From Chromatiales bacterium (lineage in GTDB: Bacteria; Pseudomonadota; Gammaproteobacteria; Chromatiales; Chromatiaceae), in NCBI GenBank assembly GCA_024762475.1, contig JANTHJ010000001.1:24510-88509 (forward strand): 64,000 bases of DNA, read 5' to 3'. The position numbers and the translations under genes were made by a program. Below, in pieces: positions 5,681-36,026 of the stretch (the stretch's first letter is position 1; each line of letters opens with the position of its first letter). The notes under the pieces were generated by a model. The model had not been told where the DNA came from and did not search any database. It saw only the letters and a list, made by a program, of their open reading frames with translations.

Positions 5681-6892
5681 TCAGCCCTTTTCCTTCGCTT
5701 CGCCCGCGCCGGCCGGCGCGGGCTTGATCTCGTTGAGCAAGGTGGGACCCGGATGGACGAAGACCCGATCACCTTCGGCAATACCCGAGAGCACCTCGGT
5801 CATGCCATTGGGCAGACGGCGCCCCTCGCGGATCATCCGCAGCTCGGGGCCGCCTTCGGCATCCCGCACATATACCACCGGCAGGTTGCCACGATAGAGA
5901 ATGGCCGAAGTGGGAATGACCGGGAGCCGTTTGGCGCTGGCAGCCGCCTGCGAGGTATCGGGCACCAGCACCTTTGCATACATGCCTGGCTTGGAGACGC
6001 CCTTCGGGACATCGAACTTCACCTTTACTGTATGGCGCTGGGGATCGGCCATCGGGAAGATCTGCGCGACCCGCACGTCGACCGGATCCGGATGGTCGTC
6101 AAAGGTGGCCGCCTTGCGCAGAATCAGCATCGGCTTCAGACCCTGGGCAAGACGCGCCGGCAGATCGACCTCTACCTGCAACCAGGTCACATCACCGAAA
6201 TCCAGCAGCGGTTGCCCGGGCTGGACGGTATCCCCTTCCTCCACATACTTGCTCAGGATCACGCCATCGAAGGGGGCGACGCTCTTGGTATCACGCAACT
6301 TGGCATCGATCGCCTGGATTTCCGATGCCGCCCGCAGCATGGCGCTGCGCGCCTGCTCGACGCGGGTGGTCGAGGCGTAGAGATCCGCCGATCGCTCTGC
6401 GCCCCGGTCACGTTCCCCGAAGAAGTCCTCCGCAGGTCGGGTGAACATCTGGTCGAACAGATTGGGAATTCCCATGCCGCCCGGCGCGGCCTTGGTGCGC
6501 GGCGACCAGAGCTCTCGCGTGTATTGGACACCGGCGTTACTCAGTTGTGCCTGGGCCGACTGGTACTGGGCATAGGCAGCGGCGCGCTTGGCCAATAGTT
6601 CAGCTTCGTCCAGGGCGACCAGCAGCGACCCCTGCTTGAAATAGTCTCCCTCGACCCCGGCGACGTATTTCACCCGACCCGGCAATTGTGCCGCCAGGGT
6701 CACCTGGCGATAGGGGACCACGCTGCCTCCGATTGCGACCGAAGGAACCTGACTGGACGACCTGACCTCGAAGACCTCACCATTTGCCGCGTTCGCCGAA
6801 TCCGCCACCTTGGCAGATTCGTCCGCGAGAGCAGTGCCCGGGCTCAGAACACTCCATACACCCACAACAGCCGCAGTCAGGATTCTACGCAT
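5681..6892 (-). CDS. RND periplasmic adaptor (membrane fusion protein)
   Basis: Signal peptide MRRILTAAVVG; lipoyl-like halves (VEGDYFKQG; APFDGVILSKYVEEGDTVQPGQPL); FPMADPQRHTVKV; directly upstream of the RND permease. Confidence 0.93.
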   Translation of the reverse strand: MRRILTAAVVGVWSVLSPGTALADESAKVADSANAANGEVFEVRSSSQVPSVAIGGSVVPYRQVTLAAQLPGRVKYVAGVEGDYFKQGSLLVALDEAELLAKRAAAYAQYQSAQAQLSNAGVQYTRELWSPRTKAAPGGMGIPNLFDQMFTRPAEDFFGERDRGAERSADLYASTTRVEQARSAMLRAASEIQAIDAKLRDTKSVAPFDGVILSKYVEEGDTVQPGQPLLDFGDVTWLQVEVDLPARLAQGLKPMLILRKAATFDDHPDPVDVRVAQIFPMADPQRHTVKVKFDVPKGVSKPGMYAKVLVPDTSQAAASAKRLPVIPTSAILYRGNLPVVYVRDAEGGPELRMIREGRRLPNGMTEVLSGIAEGDRVFVHPGPTLLNEIKPAPAGAGEAKEKG

Positions 6893-17730: not shown

Positions 17731-18105
17731 ATGCGGAACCCCGCAAGACACGCAACCATCGCTCTGACGCTGGCGGCGCTTTTCGGCGGTGCCAGTCTGA
17801 TGCCACAGGTTGCCTCGGCAGCAAAACACGAAGACAGGGTAGCCATGGGCAAGGAGGTTGCCTGGGACCGCAAGACGGGCAACTGCCTGGCCTGTCACAT
17901 GATGCCGGGCGGTAATCTGCCGGGCGACATCGGCCCACCCCTGATTGCCATGAAGGCCCGTTTCCCCGATCGCCAGAAGCTGTTCGACCAGATCTATGAT
18001 GCGACGAAGAAGAATCCGGAATCCCGGATGCCCCCCTTCGGCAAGCACAAGATCATCTCGAACGCCGACATCGACGCGATCATCGACTACCTGTATACCC
18101 TCTGA
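17731..18105 (+). CDS. soxX: Sulfur oxidation c-type cytochrome SoxX
   Basis: GNCLACH heme motif, GDIGPPL, MPPFG; signal peptide; first gene of the sox cluster. Confidence 0.93.
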   Translation: MRNPARHATIALTLAALFGGASLMPQVASAAKHEDRVAMGKEVAWDRKTGNCLACHMMPGGNLPGDIGPPLIAMKARFPDRQKLFDQIYDATKKNPESRMPPFGKHKIISNADIDAIIDYLYTL

Positions 18106-18151
18106 GCAGGGTGAGAACCGACGATTTCCTTAGTTTCCAGGAGAACGAGAC

Positions 18152-18628
18152 ATGAATACCGATACCAAACGCCGAGTCTTCTTGAAAGGCTCCCTTGCCG
18201 CCGGCACCGTGGGTGTGGCGGTTACCGCCGGCCTGCTGACGCCGCAGACCGTGCTGGCCGCCTGGCCCGAAAAGGCCTTCCACGCCAAGAAGACGGACGA
18301 GGCCCTGAGCAACTCCCTTGGCTCGGGCACGACCGAGGCCTCCGACAAGATCAAGATCAAGGCTCCCGATATCGCCGAGAACGGCGCAGTGGTCCCGGTC
18401 ACTGTGAGCAGCGACCTGCCCGGGGTGGAGAACATCGCCATCCTGTCCTCTGCGAACAACACGCCCCTGCTTGCCGTCTACAACCTTGGCAAGAACACCA
18501 TGGCAAACGTCTCCTGCCGCATCAAGATGGCCAAGACCGGCGACGTGATCGCTGTGGTCAAGAGCGGCGGCAAGCTCTATGCAAACCGCAAGAGCGTCAA
18601 GGTCACCATCGGCGGTTGCGGCGGCTGA
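18152..18628 (+). CDS. soxY: Thiosulfate carrier SoxY
   Basis: Tat signal RRVFLK; PDIAENGAVVP; C-terminal VKVTIGGCGG swinging arm. Confidence 0.98.
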   Translation: MNTDTKRRVFLKGSLAAGTVGVAVTAGLLTPQTVLAAWPEKAFHAKKTDEALSNSLGSGTTEASDKIKIKAPDIAENGAVVPVTVSSDLPGVENIAILSSANNTPLLAVYNLGKNTMANVSCRIKMAKTGDVIAVVKSGGKLYANRKSVKVTIGGCGG

Positions 18629-18676
18629 TAGCGCCCTTCAACCACGACGGCTCAATCGAATTCGAGGTAATTACCA

Positions 18677-18994
18677 ATGGCTAAAAGCTCAATCAAGATT
18701 CGCGCTAAGGCAAAGGGCGGCGTCACCACCGTCAAGTGCCTGATCAACCACCCCATGGAAACCGGTCTTCGAAAGAACAAGAAGACCGGCAAGATGATTC
18801 CGGCCCACTTCATCACCGACGTTGTGGCCAAGCACAACGATGCCGAGGTGCTGAGCGCTCAATGGAGTGGTGGCATCTCCAAGAACCCCTATCTTGCCTT
18901 CAAGTTCAGCGGCGGGGCCAAGGGCGACCCCGTGTCCATTGCCTGGACCGACAATCAGGGCAAGAGCGACTCTGCCACCGCGAAGATCAAGTAA
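18677..18994 (+). CDS. soxZ: SoxZ
   Basis: HPMETGLRK, IPAHFI, ISKNPY, WTDNQG. Confidence 0.97.
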   Translation: MAKSSIKIRAKAKGGVTTVKCLINHPMETGLRKNKKTGKMIPAHFITDVVAKHNDAEVLSAQWSGGISKNPYLAFKFSGGAKGDPVSIAWTDNQGKSDSATAKIK

Positions 18995-19057
18995 AGACCC
19001 ATTGATTCTGGAGATGCATAGGCATCTCCGGTCCACTCTGGGAGGAGATTTAAATCC

Positions 19058-19903
19058 ATGAAAATGAAAAAGCTCGCGATCGCCGCCCTTTGCGCCCTTG
19101 TGGCCAATGGCGCGTTCGCTGCGAAGAAGGCCACGGACACCACGCCCGAAGAAGACCTCAAGACCTATCGCGACTACTTCTTCAAGCGCTTCCCCGGTGT
19201 CCCATTGCAGGAGTATGCCAACGGCGTCTATGCCATCGACAAGGTATCTCGAGACAGCTGGGAGGCCATCGAGGAATTCCCGCCCTACGAGCCCATGATC
19301 GAAGAAGGCGAAACCATGTGGAATACGCCTTTTGCCAACGGCAAGACCTATGGCTCGTGCTTCAATGACGATCCTGCCCAGCGCAAGCACTTCCCCCGCT
19401 GGGACGATGAACGCAAGACGGTGGTGACACTACCGATGGCCATCAACGAGTGCCGCAGCAAGAACGGTGAGAAGCCCCTCAAGTACAAGAAGGGAGCAAT
19501 CGCCAACCTCCTGGCCTACATGGCCTACGAGTCACGGGGTCAGAAGACCAACGTCAAGATCCCCAACAAGGATGCGCTCGCGGCCTATGACAAGGGCAAG
19601 ACCGTTTACTTTGCCCGCCGGGGCCAGTTGAATTTCAGCTGCGCCTCGTGTCACATGCAGTCTGCAGGGCAGAAGGTGCGTGCAGACATCCTTAGTCCGG
19701 TTCTTGGCCATACCACCGGCTGGCCGGTGTACCGCTCCAAGTGGGGTGAGCTGGGGACCCTGCATCGTCGCTTCGGCGGCTGCATGAAGCAGATGCGCGC
19801 CAAGCCCTACAAGGCGCAGGGAGAGGAGTTCCGTGACCTGGAATACTTCCTCACCCACGTGAGCAACGGGATCGAGTTCAACGGCCCCTCGGCTCGCAAA
19901 TAG
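19058..19903 (+). CDS. soxA: SoxA cytochrome c
   Basis: RRGQLNFSCASCH; GHTTGWPVYR; RRFGGC active-site Cys. Confidence 0.97.
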   Translation: MKMKKLAIAALCALVANGAFAAKKATDTTPEEDLKTYRDYFFKRFPGVPLQEYANGVYAIDKVSRDSWEAIEEFPPYEPMIEEGETMWNTPFANGKTYGSCFNDDPAQRKHFPRWDDERKTVVTLPMAINECRSKNGEKPLKYKKGAIANLLAYMAYESRGQKTNVKIPNKDALAAYDKGKTVYFARRGQLNFSCASCHMQSAGQKVRADILSPVLGHTTGWPVYRSKWGELGTLHRRFGGCMKQMRAKPYKAQGEEFRDLEYFLTHVSNGIEFNGPSARK

Positions 19904-28231: not shown

Positions 28232-28531
28232 CTATGGCAGACGCATCGGATCGCGCCCACCGGAAGCGGGAATCCCCGGGAGTCTCTTGGGAGCAGTCCC
28301 CAGGGAATCGCGGATACAGTGGCACCATCCCCTGCCGCCAAAGCGCTCCTGGTTGAGGTTGTCGCAGGCGGGAGGATCTCCGACCGAGGGGATGACCAGT
28401 GGCCTGTCGCCAAAGGGGCGGTAGTCGCCCGGCGCATGCAGATGGCAGCTCAAGGACGCGGCCACGCTGGCTGCACTCAGTCCCGCGGCAAGAAGGGCGG
28501 CAGCGCTAACGCGCAGAATGGCGCTGTTCAT
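28232..28531 (-). CDS. Small secreted Cys/His-containing protein
   Basis: Signal peptide MNSAILRVSAAALLAAGLSAASVAA; SCHLH, ACD, WCHC; ATGA overlap with the DUF3299 gene. Confidence 0.65.
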   Translation of the reverse strand: MNSAILRVSAAALLAAGLSAASVAASLSCHLHAPGDYRPFGDRPLVIPSVGDPPACDNLNQERFGGRGWCHCIRDSLGTAPKRLPGIPASGGRDPMRLP

Positions 28532-29055
28532 TCGTACGGGATCACGCTTTCGGCCTGGATCTGATAGCCGGCGGTGGCCAGGTCGCTGGTGAAGGGCTTG
28601 GCGCTCATGGTGCCGGTAACCCACACGGTATCAAAGGCGTGACGTATCCTGGCGTCACCCTTGGGCACCTTGACGTAGACGGTCTGATTGGCCGGAGGCG
28701 GCGGGACATGGATGCAGGCGCCGTAATAGGGAACCAGCAGGAACTCACTGAGTTTTTGCCCGTCGCCCTCCAGCGGCACCACGAAGCCCGGCAGCTTGAC
28801 CCGTTTTCCGTCCAGTTCCTTTACCACCGGCGCCTTCTTCCAGATGGCCTCCAGCTCGTCGAGTAGCTTCTTGGCACGGGGGTCAGTGTCGTCGAGATCC
28901 GCGACATCGGCCCCGTATTTCTCCATGAGCTTTTCGGGATTGGAGCCCTCGGGCAACAGGGCATCCCAATCCAGTTCGACCGGTGGCTTGGCGCTCAACG
29001 CGGTAAGGGGCAGGACACACAGCAGTACAAGGAAGACGTTGAATCTGTGCTTCAT
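28528..29055 (-). CDS. DUF3299 family protein (ZrgD-like)
   Basis: LDWDALLP, VKLPGFVVPL, FLLVPYYGACIHVPPPPANQ. Confidence 0.93.
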   Translation of the reverse strand: MKHRFNVFLVLLCVLPLTALSAKPPVELDWDALLPEGSNPEKLMEKYGADVADLDDTDPRAKKLLDELEAIWKKAPVVKELDGKRVKLPGFVVPLEGDGQKLSEFLLVPYYGACIHVPPPPANQTVYVKVPKGDARIRHAFDTVWVTGTMSAKPFTSDLATAGYQIQAESVIPYE

Positions 29056-29065
29056 GAAAGGTTCT

Positions 29066-30325
29066 CTAAATCCGAATACTCATTCCATCGGCCAGCGAAT
29101 AGCGATAGGCGCGGTAGCCCGGTATGAGGCCGATGAGCAGACCGGCGACCGCCACCAGGCCCAGCATAATACCTTCGCGGGTCGAGGGCATACCCAGCGG
29201 CAGGTACAGGCCATAATGACTCTCGACATAGGGTTGGGCGAGTGCCAGCGTCGTGTAGAGCAGCAACAGGCCCATGACCACGCCGACCAGGCTCAACAGC
29301 AGGCTCTCACCAGTGATCAACAGCATGATGTGGGCCGGACGGGCACCGACCGAACGCAGGATCGCCATCTCTCGTCGTCGTTCATTGAGGCCAGCCAGCA
29401 TCACGGTCAGCATGCCGACCAGCCCGACGGCCACCACCAGCGCGGTCACCACCAGCAGCGCATGCTCTGCGATGGACATCAGGTCCCACAGCTGCTGCAG
29501 GGCCACCCCGGGCAGGATCGCAGACAGGGGCTCCTTGCGGTAATCGTTGATCTCCGTTTGTACCCGGAATGTCGCAATACGGCTTTTCAGGCCCACCAGA
29601 AAGGCGGTGATCAGCTTGGGTGTCAGGTCCATCTTGCGCGCCTGCTGTGCGCTGATATGCAGGCCGGGCACGTGGCGACCCTTGATCCAGTCCTTGTGGA
29701 TGGCCTCGATGCCTTCCAGGGGCACATGCACGCTGCGGTCGACCGGGGTCCCGGTGGGATCGAGAATGCCCACCACAGTGAAGGGCTTGTCGGCATGCAG
29801 GGCGAAGCTGGTCATCCCGGCGCCGTGGGCGATGACGATCTTCTGACCGACGCGGTAATGCAGCTTCTTTGCGACCTGGTAGCCCAGCACCGCCTCATAG
29901 ACATCCTGGAAGGGGCGTCCCTCGCGCAGGTGCAGGGGATGCTTGTGTGCATAGCGGTAGTGCCGGAAGTAGTCCTGGTTGGTGCCCAGCACCCGAAAAC
30001 CCTTGTGTGAATCCCCGAGGGAGATCGGGATGGTCCAGGCCACCAGGGGGTTCCTGGCGAAGTGCTGGTAACTCTTCCAGGAGATATTGTTGGTGGCGTC
30101 ACCGATGCGGAAGACCGAATACAACAACAGGTTGATGGCGCCACTGCGGGCGCCGACCACCAGGTCGGTACCGGATATGGTGTTGGCGAAGCTGTTGCGT
30201 GATTCGACCCTGACACGTTCTACCCCCAGGAGCAAAGCGACACTCAAGGCAATGCTGAGCACAATCAGGCCGGCGGTGAAGCGGCGGTTCACCAGGCTCT
30301 TCAGTGCAAGCGAGAGAATGGCCAT
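29066..30325 (-). CDS. ABC transporter permease, MacB/FtsX type (ZrgC-like)
   Basis: SFANTISGTDLVVGARSG, LNERRREMAILRSVGARP. Confidence 0.93.
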   Translation of the reverse strand: MAILSLALKSLVNRRFTAGLIVLSIALSVALLLGVERVRVESRNSFANTISGTDLVVGARSGAINLLLYSVFRIGDATNNISWKSYQHFARNPLVAWTIPISLGDSHKGFRVLGTNQDYFRHYRYAHKHPLHLREGRPFQDVYEAVLGYQVAKKLHYRVGQKIVIAHGAGMTSFALHADKPFTVVGILDPTGTPVDRSVHVPLEGIEAIHKDWIKGRHVPGLHISAQQARKMDLTPKLITAFLVGLKSRIATFRVQTEINDYRKEPLSAILPGVALQQLWDLMSIAEHALLVVTALVVAVGLVGMLTVMLAGLNERRREMAILRSVGARPAHIMLLITGESLLLSLVGVVMGLLLLYTTLALAQPYVESHYGLYLPLGMPSTREGIMLGLVAVAGLLIGLIPGYRAYRYSLADGMSIRI

Positions 30326-31038
30326 TATGGTCCCTCACGCCCGGCAGAATTGATCTCGTCCAGCGCAATATGCTGCTCGAACAGCGGTTCCAGCTGACGG
30401 TCGTGACTGACGAACAGCAGGGTCGAATGGGCGGCCTCGCATTCCTGGAACAGCAGCCGCAGGAAGGCCTGGCGCATGTCGCTGTCCAGGGCCGAGGTGG
30501 GCTCGTCCGCGATGATGATCTCCGGGGCGCCGATCAGGGCACGGGCGGTGGCCACCCGCTGTTGCTGGCCCACGCTCAGTTCGGTCACGGGGCGGTGAAT
30601 CAGGGCCTCGTCGCCCATGTCCAGGTGTTCCAGCAGGCGCAGCGCCTCGTCTTCCAGGGTCGCGCCAGTTTTCAGCACCTTGTCCCTGCGCGCGCGTGAG
30701 AAGCGGCACGGCAAGGTCACGTTCTCCAGTACCGACAGATAGGGGATGAGATTGAACAGCTGGAACACGAAACCGATATGGTCGGATCTGAAGTGATCGC
30801 GCTGCGGCCCGGAGAATGTGCTCAACGGTTTGCCCAGGACCCGCACCTCCCCGGCGCTCGGCAGGCTGACGCCCGCCAGTAACGACAGCAGTGTGCTCTT
30901 GCCGCTGCCGCTCGGGCCGCGGATGAAGATGCGCTCGCCGCGCGCCACCGCCAGTTCAGGAATGTAGAGCACCTCGGGGAGGTTGCTGCGCCAACGGAAG
31001 CGCAGTTCGCTGATCTGTATCGCCGGGGATTGGGGCAT
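30325..31038 (-). CDS. ABC transporter ATP-binding protein (ZrgB-like)
   Basis: GPSGSGKST, LSVGQQQRV, IADEPTSALD, VSHD. Confidence 0.95.
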   Translation of the reverse strand: MPQSPAIQISELRFRWRSNLPEVLYIPELAVARGERIFIRGPSGSGKSTLLSLLAGVSLPSAGEVRVLGKPLSTFSGPQRDHFRSDHIGFVFQLFNLIPYLSVLENVTLPCRFSRARRDKVLKTGATLEDEALRLLEHLDMGDEALIHRPVTELSVGQQQRVATARALIGAPEIIIADEPTSALDSDMRQAFLRLLFQECEAAHSTLLFVSHDRQLEPLFEQHIALDEINSAGREGP

Positions 31039-31054
31039 CGACCAACGGCTGGCT

Positions 31055-31597
31055 TCAAAAGTTGAAACTGGCACTGTCCGGTGTCAGGTCTGCCTGCTTC
31101 TGACCCCGGTCGGTAATACTCTGCGCATCTATGACCCGGGTGCCGGGGAACAGTTTGAAGATATTGATCCCGATGTGATCCAGTTGCGAGGTGTCCGCGC
31201 ATTCGAGGCGATAGCTTGCGGAAAACTCGCTGTGCGTCTCCCCGGAATCGTGGTCTGCCCCCTCGTGTTCGTGATGTTCGCTGGAGGTATGCACATTGAT
31301 CGCGCTCGGTTCGCAGCCGGCCGCGGCAGGGAACCCGAACACACGCTGGGGCTGGTTCAGGATTGCGAGCGCCGCGTTGACAGCTTGGGTCTGGGCCTGG
31401 TCTGCCGGCGGGTGCTCGAAGCCAACGATATTCATGCCAGGGCTGACAAATTCCATTTCGAGGTGATTGCCGTCCTGGGCAATTGTCAGCTTTGCCTCGC
31501 CGTGCACGTGCGCGCCGTGTTGCTCAAACGCGGACTTGTCGGCGACTGCAGAGGTGGTGATAAACAGAGCGATCAGGAGAGTGGAAAACTTCATCAT
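31055..31597 (-). CDS. DUF2796 His-rich periplasmic protein (ZrgA-like, zinc-binding)
   Basis: Signal peptide MMKFSTLLIALF; HGAHVHG, PGMNIVGFEH, HEHEGADHDSGETHSEF. Confidence 0.9.
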   Translation of the reverse strand: MMKFSTLLIALFITTSAVADKSAFEQHGAHVHGEAKLTIAQDGNHLEMEFVSPGMNIVGFEHPPADQAQTQAVNAALAILNQPQRVFGFPAAAGCEPSAINVHTSSEHHEHEGADHDSGETHSEFSASYRLECADTSQLDHIGINIFKLFPGTRVIDAQSITDRGQKQADLTPDSASFNF

Positions 31598-31993
31598 CGG
31601 CGGCAGGGGGTTTCTGTTCTCCTCCTCCGACTCGCGGCTAGGGCGATAGTTCCGTTCTGCGAGGCACTCGGGACAGCTGTCGACCAAGCGACCACAGCGA
31701 CTGCGGGTCGTGTCGCTGTTTGCGGGCATCAGTCGCCCGCTCAACTCCACTGCCGGCGATCAGAGGAGGTCAACCGGGACCCGGCCTTCATGTTGTACCG
31801 CGTGCCGGCAAAGTCACTCTTCATCGAGGGCCCGCTTGGCGGTACTTTGCCTGGACGTCGCCGCCGCCTCTTCGTTGCCTCATCTGCCGGGTCAACAACG
31901 ATCCTGCCCCGGCAATGGCGGTGACCCCCGGCTCAACGAGCCGCCGACCGACACAGACATCCGTCGGGAGACCGGCGCCGACCATGGCAGGGT

Positions 31994-32923
31994 TCACCTT
32001 CGGTCCAGGCTACGGATCAACAGTTCGACCCGGCGGTTCTTCAATCGCCCCTGCTGAGTCGAATTGTCCGCGATCGGCTGGCTCTCCCCCCGACCCTCGG
32101 CGGCAACCCGTTGCGCCTCGACGCCCTGCCCGACCAGGTATTCACGCACCGCCTTTGCGCGCCGCAATGACAGTTTCATATTGGCCTCCGCTCCACCCAC
32201 ACTATCGGTATGCCCTAGTACAGTGACCTCTGCATGCGGCTGGCGGCGCAGTATCGCGGCCACCCTGTCCAGTTCCTTCCTGGCGCCCACTCTCAGCCGG
32301 GACGAAGACGAATAGAAATGGACCTTCTCCAACTCCACCGGTTGACCTGCAGGGCAGCCCAGGGGACCGACCGTCCGCTCGGCATCGGTATCCGGGCACA
32401 GATCGACCTCATCAGTCACGCCGTCGGCATCCTTGTCCGGCAATGTCCTGGTCTGCGGGCGCCTCGATGCCACTGAGCCGTCGCTGTGTGGCGGCGTTAG
32501 CAGGAGACCACCGGCACCATCCTCTGCTACCCGCCAGCCCTGGCTGCGCAGGCGCCCGATCAGGCGCAGCAGTTCGATCTGCCGTATGCCCCCCGCAGGC
32601 TTGGCTGGCACTTGAACAGATTTCGACCCGGGGGACTCCGGCCTGGGGGATTCGGGGCGCGGCGCCGGCTGGCGAGTCCGGTAGAGGATTATGTTCCCCT
32701 CGGCATCGGTATCCTGATGCCAGCCGCGCAGTTCGAGTAGCTCACTGAAATCAGTCAGCACCCTATCCTGTGATTGCGTGTCCTGTGCATGAGCCTGGTG
32801 CCCGACAAGCAGGCCCATTGCGCCAATCGACGCCAGAGCCAACGCCAACGCCCCCTGACTGGCGAGGCCCGCAACCATGACAAAGCGATGTCTCCCTTCC
32901 GCGCCAATGAACTTCGGTTTCAT
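31994..32923 (-). CDS. OmpA-like peptidoglycan-binding protein with a non-barrel N-terminus
   Basis: DADGVTDEVDLCPDT Ca-type repeat; GHTD, LSLRRA, GESQP, NRRVE; GGAG RBS. Confidence 0.88.
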   Translation of the reverse strand: MKPKFIGAEGRHRFVMVAGLASQGALALALASIGAMGLLVGHQAHAQDTQSQDRVLTDFSELLELRGWHQDTDAEGNIILYRTRQPAPRPESPRPESPGSKSVQVPAKPAGGIRQIELLRLIGRLRSQGWRVAEDGAGGLLLTPPHSDGSVASRRPQTRTLPDKDADGVTDEVDLCPDTDAERTVGPLGCPAGQPVELEKVHFYSSSSRLRVGARKELDRVAAILRRQPHAEVTVLGHTDSVGGAEANMKLSLRRAKAVREYLVGQGVEAQRVAAEGRGESQPIADNSTQQGRLKNRRVELLIRSLDRR

Positions 32924-33220
32924 GTCGCCCCCTCCCTTGTGCCTTTACGGAGCCGTTGTGAGAATCCGCCTAAGCCTACACCTGATATCAATGGATTCAG
33001 TAGGGGCATGTGACTAATCTGAATCAAGGCCCCGGCAGTCAGGGAAGAACGACTGAAGTGATGGAGGCTTACGGCGAGGGCCAACGAACAGCTACGATGG
33101 ACTGGCCGTTCTGCGCCCTATGGACGACGCGGCGTCAACGATAGATCTGCTCGGCGAGCTGCTCGAGCCGGCACCGTCGCCCGAACTGACCGCGCCCGGC
33201 ACGCTGTTCGTGCATGGTCG

Positions 33221-33445
33221 TTATGGCCTGTTCACAGACACGAACAATCGCCGCATCTCGCGCCACGACATGGCAACGCACAGTACCCCCGAGTGGTGCG
33301 CACACCACTCCCATTTGACCCGGTCCCGGGAGTCTGACGGCGCCCGGCCGAGCCGCCTCTCTGCCAAAATGGCAGAGAGGTTTGCAGTCCAACTGATGCG
33401 GATATCCCATTGATACTTCTTGTCTTTGGTGAGGCGGTCTAGCAT
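33221..33445 (-). CDS. Possible small hypothetical protein or pseudogene
   Basis: GGAGG RBS 9 nt before ATG; 74 aa; no recognisable motif. Confidence 0.35.
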   Translation of the reverse strand: MLDRLTKDKKYQWDIRISWTANLSAILAERRLGRAPSDSRDRVKWEWCAHHSGVLCVAMSWREMRRLFVSVNRP

Positions 33446-33766
33446 CGTTTACCCCCTCCGGTCACAAACAAAGTGACAGATTGACAGGCAAGACGGGCAA
33501 TTTTGCGGTCTGCAGGACGGTTTGTGCCCGTTGATATGCGCCCGGCGTGTACACAACATGCCGCCATGACGTCGAGCCTGGCCAGGTACGTGACCGCGTT
33601 CACAAATACGGTCTGGATTGCGTCCGTCGGCGGAAACCGCCGTCACTGTGGTTTGCTTCTTGCACTCACGGAGATGTTGCGGCGATGTGTTTCCACGGCC
33701 CGTACCGACGGGACCAATACGCCACTGCGACACAAGACACAAAAGACAAAACTCGGAGGTCGAACG

Positions 33767-34339
33767 ATGATCAAATTGCACGTTTTCAAACATCTCCCTT
33801 GGGCCGTACTGTCTGCCGGGCTGTTGTCGTCAGCCGTGGCCTTCGGTGCCGGTCAAAGCGGCATGTCCGGAATGTCGGGCATGGGCGGCATGTCCGGAAT
33901 GTCGGGCATGGGTGGCATGTCCGGGATGTCCGGCATGGGCGGCATGTCCGGGATGTCGGGCATGGGTGGCATGTCCGGAATGTCGGGCATGGGTGGCATG
34001 TCCGGGATGTCCGGCATGGGCGGCATGTCCGGAATGTCGGGCATGGGTGGCATGTCCGGAATGTCCGGCATGGGTGGCATGTCCGGGATGTCCGGCATGG
34101 GTGGCATGTCCGGGATGTCGGGTATGTACGGCACCTACCAAAAAACGCCTAGCGGCATCATTCTTCATCCGATGGGCATGTCAGGGATGAGCGGGATGTC
34201 CGGCATGGGTGGCATGTCCGGAATGTCCGGCATGGGTGGCATGTCGGGGATGTCCGGCATGGGTGGCATGTCCGGGATGTCCGGCATGGGTGGCATGTCC
34301 GGCATGGGTGGCATGTCCGGAATGTCCGGCAGGCGATAA
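33767..34339 (+). CDS. Secreted (Gly-Met-Ser/Gly)n repeat protein, 190 aa
   Basis: GGAGG RBS at 33755; signal peptide MIKLHVFKHLPWAVLSAGLLSSAVAFG; two repeat blocks; GC-rich hairpin downstream. Confidence 0.85.
   Translation: MIKLHVFKHLPWAVLSAGLLSSAVAFGAGQSGMSGMSGMGGMSGMSGMGGMSGMSGMGGMSGMSGMGGMSGMSGMGGMSGMSGMGGMSGMSGMGGMSGMSGMGGMSGMSGMGGMSGMSGMYGTYQKTPSGIILHPMGMSGMSGMSGMGGMSGMSGMGGMSGMSGMGGMSGMSGMGGMSGMGGMSGMSGRR
33860..34129 (+). repeat. Ten tandem 27-bp units encoding GMSGMSGMG
   Basis: Counted directly: GGC ATG TCC GG(A/G) ATG TC(C/G) GGC ATG GG(C/T) x10; the last unit ends GGT ATG TAC. Confidence 0.97.
34175..34330 (+). repeat. Second GMS/GMG repeat block (17 triplets; units of 12, 9, 9, 9, 6 and 7 codons)
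   Basis: Counted directly from the sequence. Confidence 0.95.
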
Positions 34340-34369
34340 GCCGAACGCGGCGATAGAGCCATAGACGAC

Positions 34370-34399
34370 CGGGGGGCCGGCGCGCTCAGCGGCCCCCCG
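34370..34399 (+). terminator. GC-rich hairpin after the GMS gene (no clear U-tract)
   Basis: cggggggccg-N10-cggccccccg. Confidence 0.45.
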
Positions 34400-35021
34400 A
34401 ATCTTGCGCGCCTCTTCGTGGCCTTGTGTGTACCGATCATTGCGTGCCACCCCGGTTGGGCCGGGTAGGCCATCGGCGTGCGGCTACCGAATGTTGATCA
34501 ATCGCGCAGATGACGCTGCACAAGAGCGCTACGCCGGCACCTTCGGCCAATGGGCTGTTTCAACAAGGCACCCAAGATCGCCCCGACTTGGTCTCGTGCG
34601 GATACACCGGAAGTTTTTCGAGCTGTGCGGGGCTTCGGGGCATCCGGAAGCCATCCGTTTCCGCGGCCTCGCCGACATCCAAGACCCGTTCCGGTTGAAT
34701 CGGGTTCGCGCGGCCTCGATGCCGTACGGGCTCGTTCCGGCCGAAGACAACCAGGGGGCGGTCTGGCCGATGGCTATCGACTGACATGAGAGCTCACGTC
34801 AGTGGAAAGCGTGACCGCACAAGGCTCAGCCAGAACATATTCGGAGGTGGTGGCGGGTGGTGTGACGAGCGGATTCCAACCCGTATGGGCCGCCGACCAT
34901 CCCGGTCGACGCACACGCGGCCGTTGCGCGATCGTTCGCGACAACCTGACCGCCCGCCGGGTGTCTACCCGACGACCTTTCGGCTTCGATGAAACACAGG
35001 TACCGCAATGGGAGTACAAAG

Positions 35022-36026
35022 ATGAAGAAACCAGACACGCAGCAGCCCGACCGTGCAGCGACGGGGCGCAGCGGAATGCTGCGCGCTTTGAGCATAGAAC
35101 ATCGCGACGGGCTGGCCTTTGCCGAACGGCTCGCACAGATCGCTTACGCAGGCAATGATGACGATCTGGCAGACGGCGTGGAGATGGTGCGGGAGTACAA
35201 CCGTCGGGAAATGGAGGCCCACCTGCAGCACGAGGAACAGACCATCTTCGGCCCACTGATCCGCAATCATCGGCAGTATGTCGATATGTGTATCCAGCTT
35301 GGCAAAGAGCACGGTTTCCTGCGCAGCCTTGTCGAGCGAATGAGTGTGGACGACGCACGTTCCAGTCTCGCCGAATTCGCCCAGATGCTGAAGAACCACA
35401 CCCTGCTCGAAGAGGAATGGCTGTTTCCCGTGATCGAGTCCACATTGACCGACGAGGAATTGCAGGCGGTACTCGACTTCACGCCACTATCGGTGGTCGA
35501 GCCGCCTCCCGCCGCGGCAAGACAGCAAACCAAGCAGGGTCCCGGCGAGGACTGGCTCGCAGTGATCGCAAAACATCACGCAGCAACCGGAGCGACCGGT
35601 GCCGGCATCGTGCTGTTTCCACGTTACCAGCCCGAGTTGGCGGTGAGTCTGGCCGAGCATCTGGGGCTCGGATTTTTCGACCTGCGGCAAGAATACCTGG
35701 AGCAGTTTGGGGTTGCCGCAGACCGCACCTCCCTGCAGGAGCTCGACGAGGCCCTGCGCCAACGTGCCACTCAATCGGGCTTCGTTTGCCAAAATATCGA
35801 GGCACTGTTGTGCGTCAAGTCAGAGGATGACAGACGGGCGTGGCTGAAAGCATTTCTTGACTACCCGTGGCCGAACCCGGTCGTTGTGCCGATCACTGTC
35901 TTCCAGGGTGATGTACCGGCAGAGCATCCTCGTGTCTGCGACCTCGAACTGTTCAAGCTTCCCCGCCTGCCGGCCCGACATAGTGGTTCACCGGACGTCA
36001 AGTACGACGTCGAGAAGCCGGCGTAG
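35022..36026 (+). CDS. Hemerythrin/HHE domain protein fused to an unassigned C-terminal alpha/beta domain
   Basis: LSIEH, HLQHEEQTIF, EHGFL, NHTLLEEEWLFP metal-ligand pattern; GGAG RBS before MKKPD. Confidence 0.85.
   Translation: MKKPDTQQPDRAATGRSGMLRALSIEHRDGLAFAERLAQIAYAGNDDDLADGVEMVREYNRREMEAHLQHEEQTIFGPLIRNHRQYVDMCIQLGKEHGFLRSLVERMSVDDARSSLAEFAQMLKNHTLLEEEWLFPVIESTLTDEELQAVLDFTPLSVVEPPPAAARQQTKQGPGEDWLAVIAKHHAATGATGAGIVLFPRYQPELAVSLAEHLGLGFFDLRQEYLEQFGVAADRTSLQELDEALRQRATQSGFVCQNIEALLCVKSEDDRRAWLKAFLDYPWPNPVVVPITVFQGDVPAEHPRVCDLELFKLPRLPARHSGSPDVKYDVEKPA

Follow-up and report, generated by a model that had tools for sequence, protein, structure and literature searches.

Redox cycling of methionine in the periplasm is known from one type of peptide, MrpX, and from the repair enzymes MsrP, DorA and DmsABC. 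MrpX of Azospira suillum is a Met-rich periplasmic peptide that acts as a hypochlorite sink and is regenerated by YedY (PMC4436054). The periplasmic dimethyl sulfoxide reductase DorA reduces protein-bound Met sulfoxide with a kcat/KM of ~10^5 M^-1 s^-1 (PMC7402097), and in Haemophilus influenzae a hypochlorite-inducible defence includes DmsABC (PMC11024254). Here we describe a gene found in a 64,000-nucleotide stretch of DNA (hereafter the window) from a Chromatiales bacterium (GenBank assembly GCA_024762475.1, contig JANTHJ010000001.1), which encodes an exported protein built of Gly-Met-(Ser/Gly) triplets (hereafter the GM protein). It suggests that there is a second class of exported Met-rich proteins, one that is much larger and extreme in composition. 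Among the relatives of the GM protein, this class is tied to a distinct and highly conserved DmsAB-like reductase, a multihaem cytochrome, a small protein family designated X, and a regulatory pair consisting of a predicted haem-c sensor and a sigma54 regulator. By analogy with MrpX and MsrPQ, the GM protein may be a periplasmic thioether buffer, the Met residues of which would be oxidized and then reduced again by molybdenum sulfoxide reductases; we put the probability of this reading at roughly 40%.

The GM protein and MrpX are both small, Sec-exported and composed of at least 20% Met, and both would follow the same principle, a Met sink that is sacrificed and then recharged enzymatically. 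The gene for MrpX has a periplasmic molybdenum sulfoxide reductase and a regulator that senses stress as neighbours, and the same holds for the relatives of the GM protein. The two differ, however, in composition and in partners. MrpX has 20% Met and 44% charged residues, whereas Gly and Ser make up 61% of the GM protein, which has no acidic residue. MrpX is paired with YedY, an enzyme of the sulfite oxidase fold, and with YedZ, whereas the relatives of the GM protein are paired with an enzyme of the bis-pyranopterin guanine dinucleotide, DmsAB type and a multihaem cytochrome. The regulator is SigF/NrsF in the former case and a haem-c histidine kinase with a sigma54 activator in the latter. 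Identification of the GM protein as MrpX itself was rejected on the grounds of this difference in charge, of the lack of yedYZ and sigF in the window, and of the lack of sequence homology in Pfam and NCBIfam.

The features of the locus are listed in Table 1. The initial annotation, made from the sequence alone, had described a ribosome-binding site, a Sec-type leader of about 27 residues, ten exact GMSGMSGMG units, a 15-residue spacer, 17 further G-M-x triplets and 49 Met in 190 residues. The ribosome-binding site, the spacer, the 17 triplets and the Met count were all reproduced. The nine-residue unit was also recovered, but array 1 contains nine exact copies (residues 32-112) and a tenth variant that ends in Tyr. 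The leader, MIKLHVFKHLPWAVLSAGLLSSAVA followed by FGAGQ, is of the Sec type as proposed, with a basic n-region, a hydrophobic core and AVA at positions -3 to -1; both the RR pair and the lipobox Cys are absent. Its length is predicted to be 25 rather than 27 residues, although cleavage at residue 27, between AFG and AG, would also be possible.

The whole protein contains 49 Met, 67 Gly and 37 Ser. The mature chain (165 residues, 15.2 kDa, pI 10.3) is 29% Met, 40% Gly and 21% Ser, so that about 90% of it consists of these three residues, while the average Met content over the genes of the window is 2.3%. The charged residues and His of the mature chain are limited to one Lys, one His and two Arg. 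As had been noted for Pro at the outset, the repeats contain neither Pro nor charged residues, and the only His is located in the spacer. The spacing between successive Met residues is exactly three residues in 45 of the 48 gaps. Four of the exact nine-residue units lie among the 17 triplets of array 2. Tandem Repeats Finder reported a period of 27, 16.6 copies and a score of 517 for the locus.

The GM-repeat gene is real and strikingly unusual. In an alignment of 13 of the 27-nt units, there were only four variable columns, all of them four-fold degenerate third positions, and all 13 units encode SGMGGMSGM; the earlier claim that the units differ only synonymously therefore holds. By our own count, the chance that four variable columns would all fall on four-fold third positions is ~15/17550. 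In two Sedimenticola strains, the X genes are 98.9% identical while the GM arrays have been reshuffled, with the reading frame and the G-M-x period kept; decay of the arrays in homologues, for which the annotation had suggested looking, was not seen there. Since the gene has a ribosome-binding site and a leader, since its units differ only synonymously, and since the frame is kept in the reshuffled Sedimenticola arrays, we concluded that it is real and appears to be under selection. The antisense frame, (IPDMPPMP)n, is equally silent to the sense-frame changes owing to the codon phase. A coding role of this antisense (PDMPPM)n reading was nevertheless rejected, because it stops at the spacer and has neither leader nor ribosome-binding site, and because in the homologues it is the GM frame that is in use, joined to known domains.

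The identical protein is called on a second assembly (GCA_024762345.1, contig JANTHN010000001.1), and the locus is present in three hydrothermal-vent metagenome runs. The k-mer (Logan) contigs of these runs give an exact match at the spacer and at both the 5' and the 3' junction. These contigs break inside the arrays, and the repeat copy number is therefore that given by the metagenome-assembled genome (MAG) alone; any assembly error by whole 9-nt units would leave the reading frame intact. It might be argued that there is no functional gene at all, and that the array is a slippage microsatellite with an open reading frame (ORF) or an assembly artefact. The repeat is open in all six frames, k-mer contigs cannot confirm the arrays, and GM arrays are evidently hard to assemble in other MAGs as well: one array is interrupted by a frameshift (L011, ~6600-6873), after which it reads on as RYGRHVRHEW..., and another by a 100-N scaffold gap (L035, 10253-10352), both probably assembly problems. 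Against this stand the ribosome-binding site, the leader, the in-frame hairpin motif, unit differences that are synonymous only and upstream elements that are conserved, together with the many homologues, some of which are in-frame fusions to known domains, and the recovery of both junctions and the spacer in three independent runs. An artefact of this kind is very improbable.

Sequence comparison places the GM protein in an undescribed family of exported (G-M-x)n proteins with a conserved hairpin motif. A protein search with the GM protein returned 92 proteins, in which the GM tracts occur in two settings: as small exported proteins standing alone, and as tails on cytochrome c5, NapC/NirT cytochromes, cytochrome c', DsrE-like, EF-hand and DUF305 proteins. 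Such tails are also found on a "PepSY-like" domain (a loose label, with no Pfam match) and on a fungal BIM1-like copper-acquisition protein, and a GM tract is present in a Nitrosopumilus protein without a recognized domain. The window protein has both the signal peptide and the long (G-M-x)n arrays of the family. A non-repeat motif, [GS]x[YF]xxxPxGxhhh[YF]P, recurs in many bacterial members, and the spacer of the window protein, YGTYQKTPSGIILHP, aligns as a short variant to its wider form, [GS]x[YF]xxxPxGx(0-1)hhh[YFHR]P. Near-matches to the spacer are GMYGTYRVTPEGILLRP (P0098), GMHGTYRVTPQGIILLP (P0099), GTYNITNEGILLRP (P0079) and GTYRVTPSGILLQP (L031). A profile search with the motif retrieved only 42 representatives among 1.84 billion proteins, and a degenerate DNA pattern of the spacer found only four loci in metagenomes, with no close orthologue. 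The neighbourhoods of the stand-alone homologues P0010, P0021, P0098 and P0099 were uninformative.

In the AlphaFold2 model of the homologue P0098, each motif is predicted to form a beta-hairpin, with strands 87-92 and 95-100 for the spacer-like one. Confidence in this is modest: the best model has a mean predicted local distance difference test score (pLDDT) of 56, with 45 residues at 70-90 and block means of up to 80 near the hairpins; the other four models average 42-45. A Foldseek comparison of this model with the PDB gave nothing meaningful (best E 0.1, TM score at most 0.25). The AlphaFold2 model of the window protein itself has a mean pLDDT of 48.9, a predicted TM score of 0.15 and no secondary structure, and the spacer motif is of low confidence in it. 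This prediction fits a disordered or extended chain and speaks neither for nor against an assembly of the polyproline II (PPII) type. It would also fit a chain that is exposed and accessible.

To examine the genomic context, one genome per GTDB species was scanned with the window protein, and 14 loci were found, in Albibeggiatoa, Parabeggiatoa, Thiothrix, Sphaerotilus, Accumulibacter, Dechloromonas, Rhodobacteraceae, gammaproteobacterial MAGs and others. In eight of the 14, which span Alpha-, Beta- and Gammaproteobacteria, three genes come after the GM gene in the same orientation. The first encodes a multihaem NapC/NrfH-like cytochrome of ~285 residues, the second a Tat-exported molybdoenzyme of ~856 residues of the DmsA/YnfE subfamily, and the third a DmsB-like 4Fe-4S subunit. 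The molybdoenzyme scores 604-613 bits with TIGR02166, under the cut-off of 777.7, and stays under every other NCBIfam cut-off as well; it is equally close to the YnfE selenate reductase and to DmsA. The copies are 71-89% identical to that of Dechloromonas (L010) across the three proteobacterial classes, and they keep a serine aligned with Ser147, the Mo ligand in DorA. The cassette, which appears to be undescribed, was seen in L010 (5968-10872), L011, L013, L014, L019, L007, L009, L015 and L035/L036 (1681-17801).

In ten of the 14 loci, the GM gene adjoins a gene for the small exported protein X (~95-120 residues), the C-terminus of which, DQGNWYTPFxxxGMxGxYD[LI]RGWH, is conserved. Protein X had no match in Pfam, NCBIfam or the PDB. 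It belongs to at least 202 clusters, all annotated as "hypothetical", many of them from Sedimenticola and sulfur-oxidizing symbionts. Scans of the upstream regions showed a HAMP-PAS histidine kinase and a sigma54-dependent response regulator in L008, L011 and L014, and a kinase in L019. The kinases have a conserved CxxCH in the periplasmic sensor domain, ahead of HAMP-PAS, which suggests a sensor with a covalently bound c-type haem. Neither the kinase nor the regulator has an NCBIfam equivalog (NCBIfam assigns neither to ZraS/ZraR); the best matches were AtoS/AtoC, below the cut-off.

The full cassette is found in two Sedimenticola MAGs (L035/L036), where it begins with the regulator and the kinase, a polyferredoxin, a protein with the "PepSY-like" domain, X and the GM protein, and continues with the multihaem cytochrome, the DmsA-like and DmsB-like subunits, a TorD/NarJ-type chaperone, a cytochrome c and an AhpC/thioredoxin-NHL protein. 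The Sedimenticola GM protein has 330 residues, with GMSGMSGMG units as in the window and two GYFKITPQGQIFFYP hairpins. Across the cassettes, the Met-rich repeat is constant while the flanking non-repeat sequence differs among the beta-, gamma- and alphaproteobacterial versions, a pattern that would suit a protein working through its thioethers.

Since the relatives have a periplasmic S-oxide reductase of the DmsAB type as a neighbour, with a haem-sensor/sigma54 system in control, we favour an oxidant sink over the other functions considered. The gene product would be a Sec-exported, intrinsically disordered chain of 15 kDa, the ~48 fully exposed thioethers of which would constitute a high-capacity periplasmic buffer. 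Oxidants would convert Met to Met sulfoxide, and envelope proteins would be spared. A periplasmic molybdenum S-oxide reductase would then return the sulfoxides to Met with electrons derived from quinol; in the relatives, this would be the dedicated DmsAB-like enzyme, fed by the multihaem cytochrome. Expression would depend on a sigma54 promoter activated by a two-component system, the sensor of which, carrying a periplasmic c-type haem, would respond to redox state or oxidants. In this scheme, the anatomy of the gene, its family, the cassette of the relatives and the cis-elements in common are observed; we infer the oxidation and reduction of Met, the inducing signal and the reductase that would serve the window copy. 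The initial description of the protein was thus essentially right, and one of the functions that it offered now has comparative support. It had proposed a soft-metal sponge, an HOCl/ROS scavenger, a sulfur-globule or envelope structural polymer and a thioether store. Of these, the oxidant scavenger, recycled by Msr enzymes, has gained the most, with the modification that the recycler in the relatives would be a molybdoenzyme rather than Msr. If this is correct, an orphan molybdoenzyme subfamily would gain a physiological substrate, and a directly testable model of envelope protection would be available. The carriers, Accumulibacter, Dechloromonas, Beggiatoaceae, Sedimenticola and chemosynthetic symbionts, are of environmental importance.

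The window copy shares its upstream elements with the cassette loci. The pattern TGCCAN3TGGCA occurs once in the window, against 0.10 expected, and this occurrence is the palindrome upstream of the GM gene. Its core, cTGCCAwwwTGGCAg, is found upstream of the GM genes of L019 (twice), L010 (twice), L017, L002, L006 and L007, and may be a binding site (a putative enhancer) for the sigma54-dependent response regulator. Between the palindrome and the start codon lies a sigma54-type promoter-like site. The pattern TGGN8TTGCW has only three matches in the window on both strands, and comparable sites lie 102-108 nt before the ATG of the GM genes of L019, L014, L017, L006 and L013; such sites occur in the window at a background rate of 54 per 128 kb of strand. 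A scan of the plus strand gave no sigma70-like promoter upstream, and no short inverted repeats near the gene. Because the window keeps the palindrome and the sigma54-like promoter of the cassette loci, we infer that its GM gene is a detached member of the same type of regulon, which is a prediction. The two small ORFs that overlap the palindrome, one of which is a publicly called gene of 74 residues, both lack a family match and are probably regulatory region and not genes.

Table 1. Coordinates of the features discussed (positions in the window unless a locus of a relative is named).
Feature	Position	Strand	Remarks
GM-repeat protein, coding sequence	33767..34339	+	ATG at 33767, TAA ending at 34339; 190 codons plus stop
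Ribosome-binding site GGAGG	33755..33759	+	read directly from the sequence; 7 nt 5' of ATG
Sec-type signal peptide, residues 1-25	33767..33841	+	predicted cut after AVA; sequence features only
Array 1, residues 32-120	33860..34126	+	9 exact GMSGMSGMG units + GMSGMSGM; 27-nt DNA units
Non-repeat motif (spacer) YGTYQKTPSGIILHP, residues 121-135	34127..34171	+	conserved predicted beta-hairpin element of the family
Array 2, residues 136-188	34172..34330	+	M + 17 G-M-x triplets, then terminal RR
GC-rich hairpin CGGGGGGCCG-(10 nt)-CGGCCCCCCG	34370..34399	+	31 nt 3' of stop; read directly from the sequence
Antisense ORFs over the arrays	33853-34134; 34165-34473	-	read (PDIPDMPPM)n
Perfect 25-bp palindrome CCTCTCTGCCA-AAA-TGGCAGAGAGG	33356..33380	.	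core TGCCAAAATGGCA (33362-33374)
Sigma54-type -24/-12 promoter-like site TGGTTTGCTTCTTGCA	33649..33664	+	GG-N10-GC; 118 nt before ATG
Small ORF over the palindrome	33120-33413	+
Small ORF over the palindrome	33221-33445	-
soxX-like cytochrome c, soxY, soxZ, soxA in a row	17731-19903		no soxB or soxCD beside; ~14 kb from the GM gene
DUF3299, FtsX/MacB permease, ABC ATPase, ZrgA cluster	28528-31750	-	resembles the ZrgABCDE zinc-uptake system
OmpA-family gene	31994-32923	-	upstream of the GM gene
Hemerythrin HHE-domain gene	34989-36026	+	~650 nt downstream of the GM gene; C-terminal half (~190 residues) without assignment
Protein X, L008	4945-5247
Protein X, L013	1549-1827
Protein X, L014	6553-6903
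Protein X, L035	9001-9285
Cassette kinase, L014	2490-4388		periplasmic CxxCH
Cassette kinase, L011	1883-3844	-	periplasmic CxxCH
Cassette kinase, L008	1552-3423	-	periplasmic CxxCH
Cassette kinase, L019	2638-4467		periplasmic CxxCH

Several facts weigh against the buffer reading. The cassette genes (X, the multihaem cytochrome, the DmsA-like and DmsB-like subunits and the two-component system) and msrP/Q are all absent from the window, so that the link of the window copy to the cassette rests on homology and predicted cis-elements. Of these elements, the sigma54 site fits nine of 12 consensus positions, and the Sedimenticola loci have sigma54 sites but no palindrome. The gaps of 200-600 bp between the GM and reductase genes make co-transcription possible at most. 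Adjacency does not prove that enzyme and substrate form a pair, and the affinity of the molybdoenzyme to YnfE, which is as close as that to DmsA, leaves room for another substrate. Met reacts slowly with H2O2, which leaves no obvious oxidant for a sulfur oxidizer at a vent. Finally, the RNA runs showed no coverage of the unique parts of the window gene, its leader and spacer. In favour of the reading, near-identical GM-repeat 31-mers were found at very high summed k-mer depth in many metatranscriptomes, from wetland, sediment and sludge. The relatives of the GM gene are therefore transcribed, probably strongly; contig depth is a poor measure of expression.

An extended form of the buffer reading would be that the GM proteins are a rechargeable periplasmic redox store at oxic-anoxic interfaces. 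The Met sulfoxide formed would later be respired through the chain of quinol, multihaem cytochrome and DmsAB-like enzyme under the control of the haem-c redox sensor. A secreted protein would then be not only an antioxidant but also an electron acceptor for repeated use. We regard this extension as distinctly unlikely.

The main rival of the buffer is a periplasmic Cu(I)/Ag(I) buffer or chaperone, in which the continuous MxxM ("Mets") motifs would bind the metal. With three thioethers per Cu(I), one chain would hold ~15 ions and pass them to cuproenzymes or keep them harmless. The MxM/MxxM motifs of Ctr1 bind Cu(I), as summarized in PMC9117721 with reference to Jiang 2005 and Rubino 2010, and CueO recruits Cu(I) through its Met-rich domain (PMC11494321). 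Like Ctr1, CueO and CopA, the GM protein would present MxxM thioethers on a flexible extracytoplasmic segment, given the export predicted from its leader and the 45 Met-Met spacings of three residues. Tracts of the GM type occur, in addition, on the BIM1-like copper-acquisition protein, DUF305 proteins, the Nitrosopumilus protein and many c-type cytochromes, although those on BIM1 and DUF305 may be convergent low-complexity sequence. The Met-rich parts of Ctr1, CueO and CopA are, however, short segments of transporters or oxidases and usually contain His or Asp, whereas the GM protein is free-standing. Unlike in the SilE, PcoE and CopA repeats, His does not accompany Met. No cop, cus, pco, sil, cueO, PCuAC or Sco gene adjoins the window gene or lies in the conserved cassette, and the cassette regulator, a haem-c sensor with a sigma54 activator, is not of the CopRS/CusRS or CueR type. 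Taken together, a role in Cu(I) handling seems doubtful; if it were true, the GM protein would be the densest natural Mets-motif polymer known. Assignment to SilE/PcoE was rejected separately, since the single His lies in the spacer and none in the repeats, since there are no sil/pco neighbours, and since there is no Pfam or NCBIfam match.

The statement of the initial annotation that the protein belongs to no named family was right: the matches in Pfam and NCBIfam are limited to compositional ones to collagen. The match to Pfam Collagen (PF01391) reaches 36.8 bits against a gathering cut-off of 27.2, and the NCBIfam Scl/Lcl matches reach 17-37 bits against cut-offs of 325-500. The G-M-(S/G) triplets do form an unbroken Gly-X-Y series, and the GM protein shares Gly at every third residue with the adhesins Scl1/Scl2 and Lcl. 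The latter, in contrast, have Pro or charged pairs, a trimerization domain and an LPXTG anchor. A collagen/Scl adhesin was therefore rejected: the match reflects the Gly periodicity of repeats that lack Pro and charge, and there is no trimerization or anchor domain. A helix of the collagen type would be expected to be unstable in the absence of Pro or charged pairs. The idea of a collagen-like or PPII bundle, put forward at first, found no support in the AlphaFold2 model of the window protein.

The Gly periodicity bears on a further interpretation, in which a Met-faced, PPII-like chain would coat S0 globules, or Se0 formed by a YnfE-like reductase, or form an envelope layer. The window organism has soxXYZA and a YeeE-type transporter, and many members of the family come from sulfur storers (Albibeggiatoa, Parabeggiatoa, Thiothrix, Sphaerotilus, Sedimenticola and symbionts). 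GM-tailed NapC-type cytochromes adjoin fccAB-soxYZ, the Gly/Met tails of GroEL populate PPII (PMC12571646), and the cassette enzyme is as near to YnfE as to DmsA. At 15 kDa, the mature chain has a size usual for globule proteins; SgpA-D and the Beggiatoa Sgp proteins are likewise small, Sec-exported, repetitive and Gly-rich proteins of sulfur oxidizers. The proven Sgp proteins are, however, rich in Trp, Gly, Tyr and Pro, with regular Pro and a conserved DFNMSMGGGGRG block, and contain almost no Met (PMC10386293). By eye, comparison with the published sequences showed no regular Pro, no Tyr/Trp-rich repeats and no block of the DFNMSMGGGGRG type in the GM protein, and a classical sulfur-globule protein was rejected. 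Members of the family are also found beyond the sulfur bacteria, in Accumulibacter, Dechloromonas, Rhodobacteraceae and archaea; no PPII bundle is predicted, and a helix free of Pro and charge pairs would not be expected to be stable. The sulfur-globule or structural polymer suggested by the initial annotation has thus lost ground, and a coating role is improbable.

The GM repeat strings appear in no paper of the literature library searched, and the only published Gly-Met repeats are GroEL's C-terminal tails, which contact client proteins (PMC12571646, PMC11978752). The (GGM)4M tail is, like the GM protein, a flexible repeat of Gly and Met only with PPII propensity (PMC12571646). It is, on the other hand, a cytoplasmic part of a chaperonin, 13 residues in length, whereas the GM protein is exported, stands alone and has ~150 repeat residues. 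One might suppose that the GM protein is an ATP-independent periplasmic holdase, the "methionine bristles" of which would bind unfolded or hydrophobic envelope proteins as the GGM tails do in GroEL, and which would be induced by an envelope-stress two-component system in the manner of ZraP/Spy. ZraPSR is a periplasmic stress system under sigma54 control, and resembles the GM system in its low-complexity periplasmic protein, its sigma54 promoter and its pair of a sensor kinase and an NtrC-type activator. ZraP, however, is rich in His and Gly, binds zinc and belongs to the CpxP family, and it is the sensor of the GM cassette that has a CxxCH haem motif. The export, the disorder and the apparent sigma54/two-component control of the GM protein would be in keeping with a holdase. 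Such a role leaves the conserved pairing with an S-oxide reductase and cytochromes unexplained and a chaperone domain is lacking, and we give it little credence.

Other genes near the GM gene were also inspected. The hemerythrin-domain protein encoded downstream weakly resembles the RIC/YtfE proteins of iron-centre repair (E 3e-5), a hint of oxidative or nitrosative stress. The sox genes confirm that the organism is a sulfur oxidizer. Further genes in the window include those for the YeeE-type transporter, queCE and tol-pal. The GC-rich hairpin downstream of the GM gene could possibly be a transcript end or a stabilizer; no T-run follows it, and the terminator scan, which demands a T-run, did not report it.

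Some observations were made beside the GM genes of other organisms. In Candidatus Albibeggiatoa (L006, 6402-6950), the 390-residue GM gene is followed by a second Gly-periodic ORF that matches collagen, and GM-type genes may thus stand in tandem there. The gene of the P0099 homologue (L028, 655-1011) is followed by one for an iron-sulfur protein that, by eye, has a Tat signal and resembles a HiPIP (CxxC...C...C). Genes of methionine synthesis (metA in L008, 6496-7581; metH and MTHFR in L003, 1-2306) and of molybdenum cofactor synthesis (moaE, moaD and moeA in L027, 1192-3187; moeA in L003) lie near some GM genes, which may be a coincidence. The enzyme fccAB is a flavocytochrome c sulfide dehydrogenase, and NapC/NirT tetrahaem cytochromes with a C-terminal GM tail are encoded right after fccAB and opposite soxYZ (L020, 4673-7873; L025/L026, 4775-7825).

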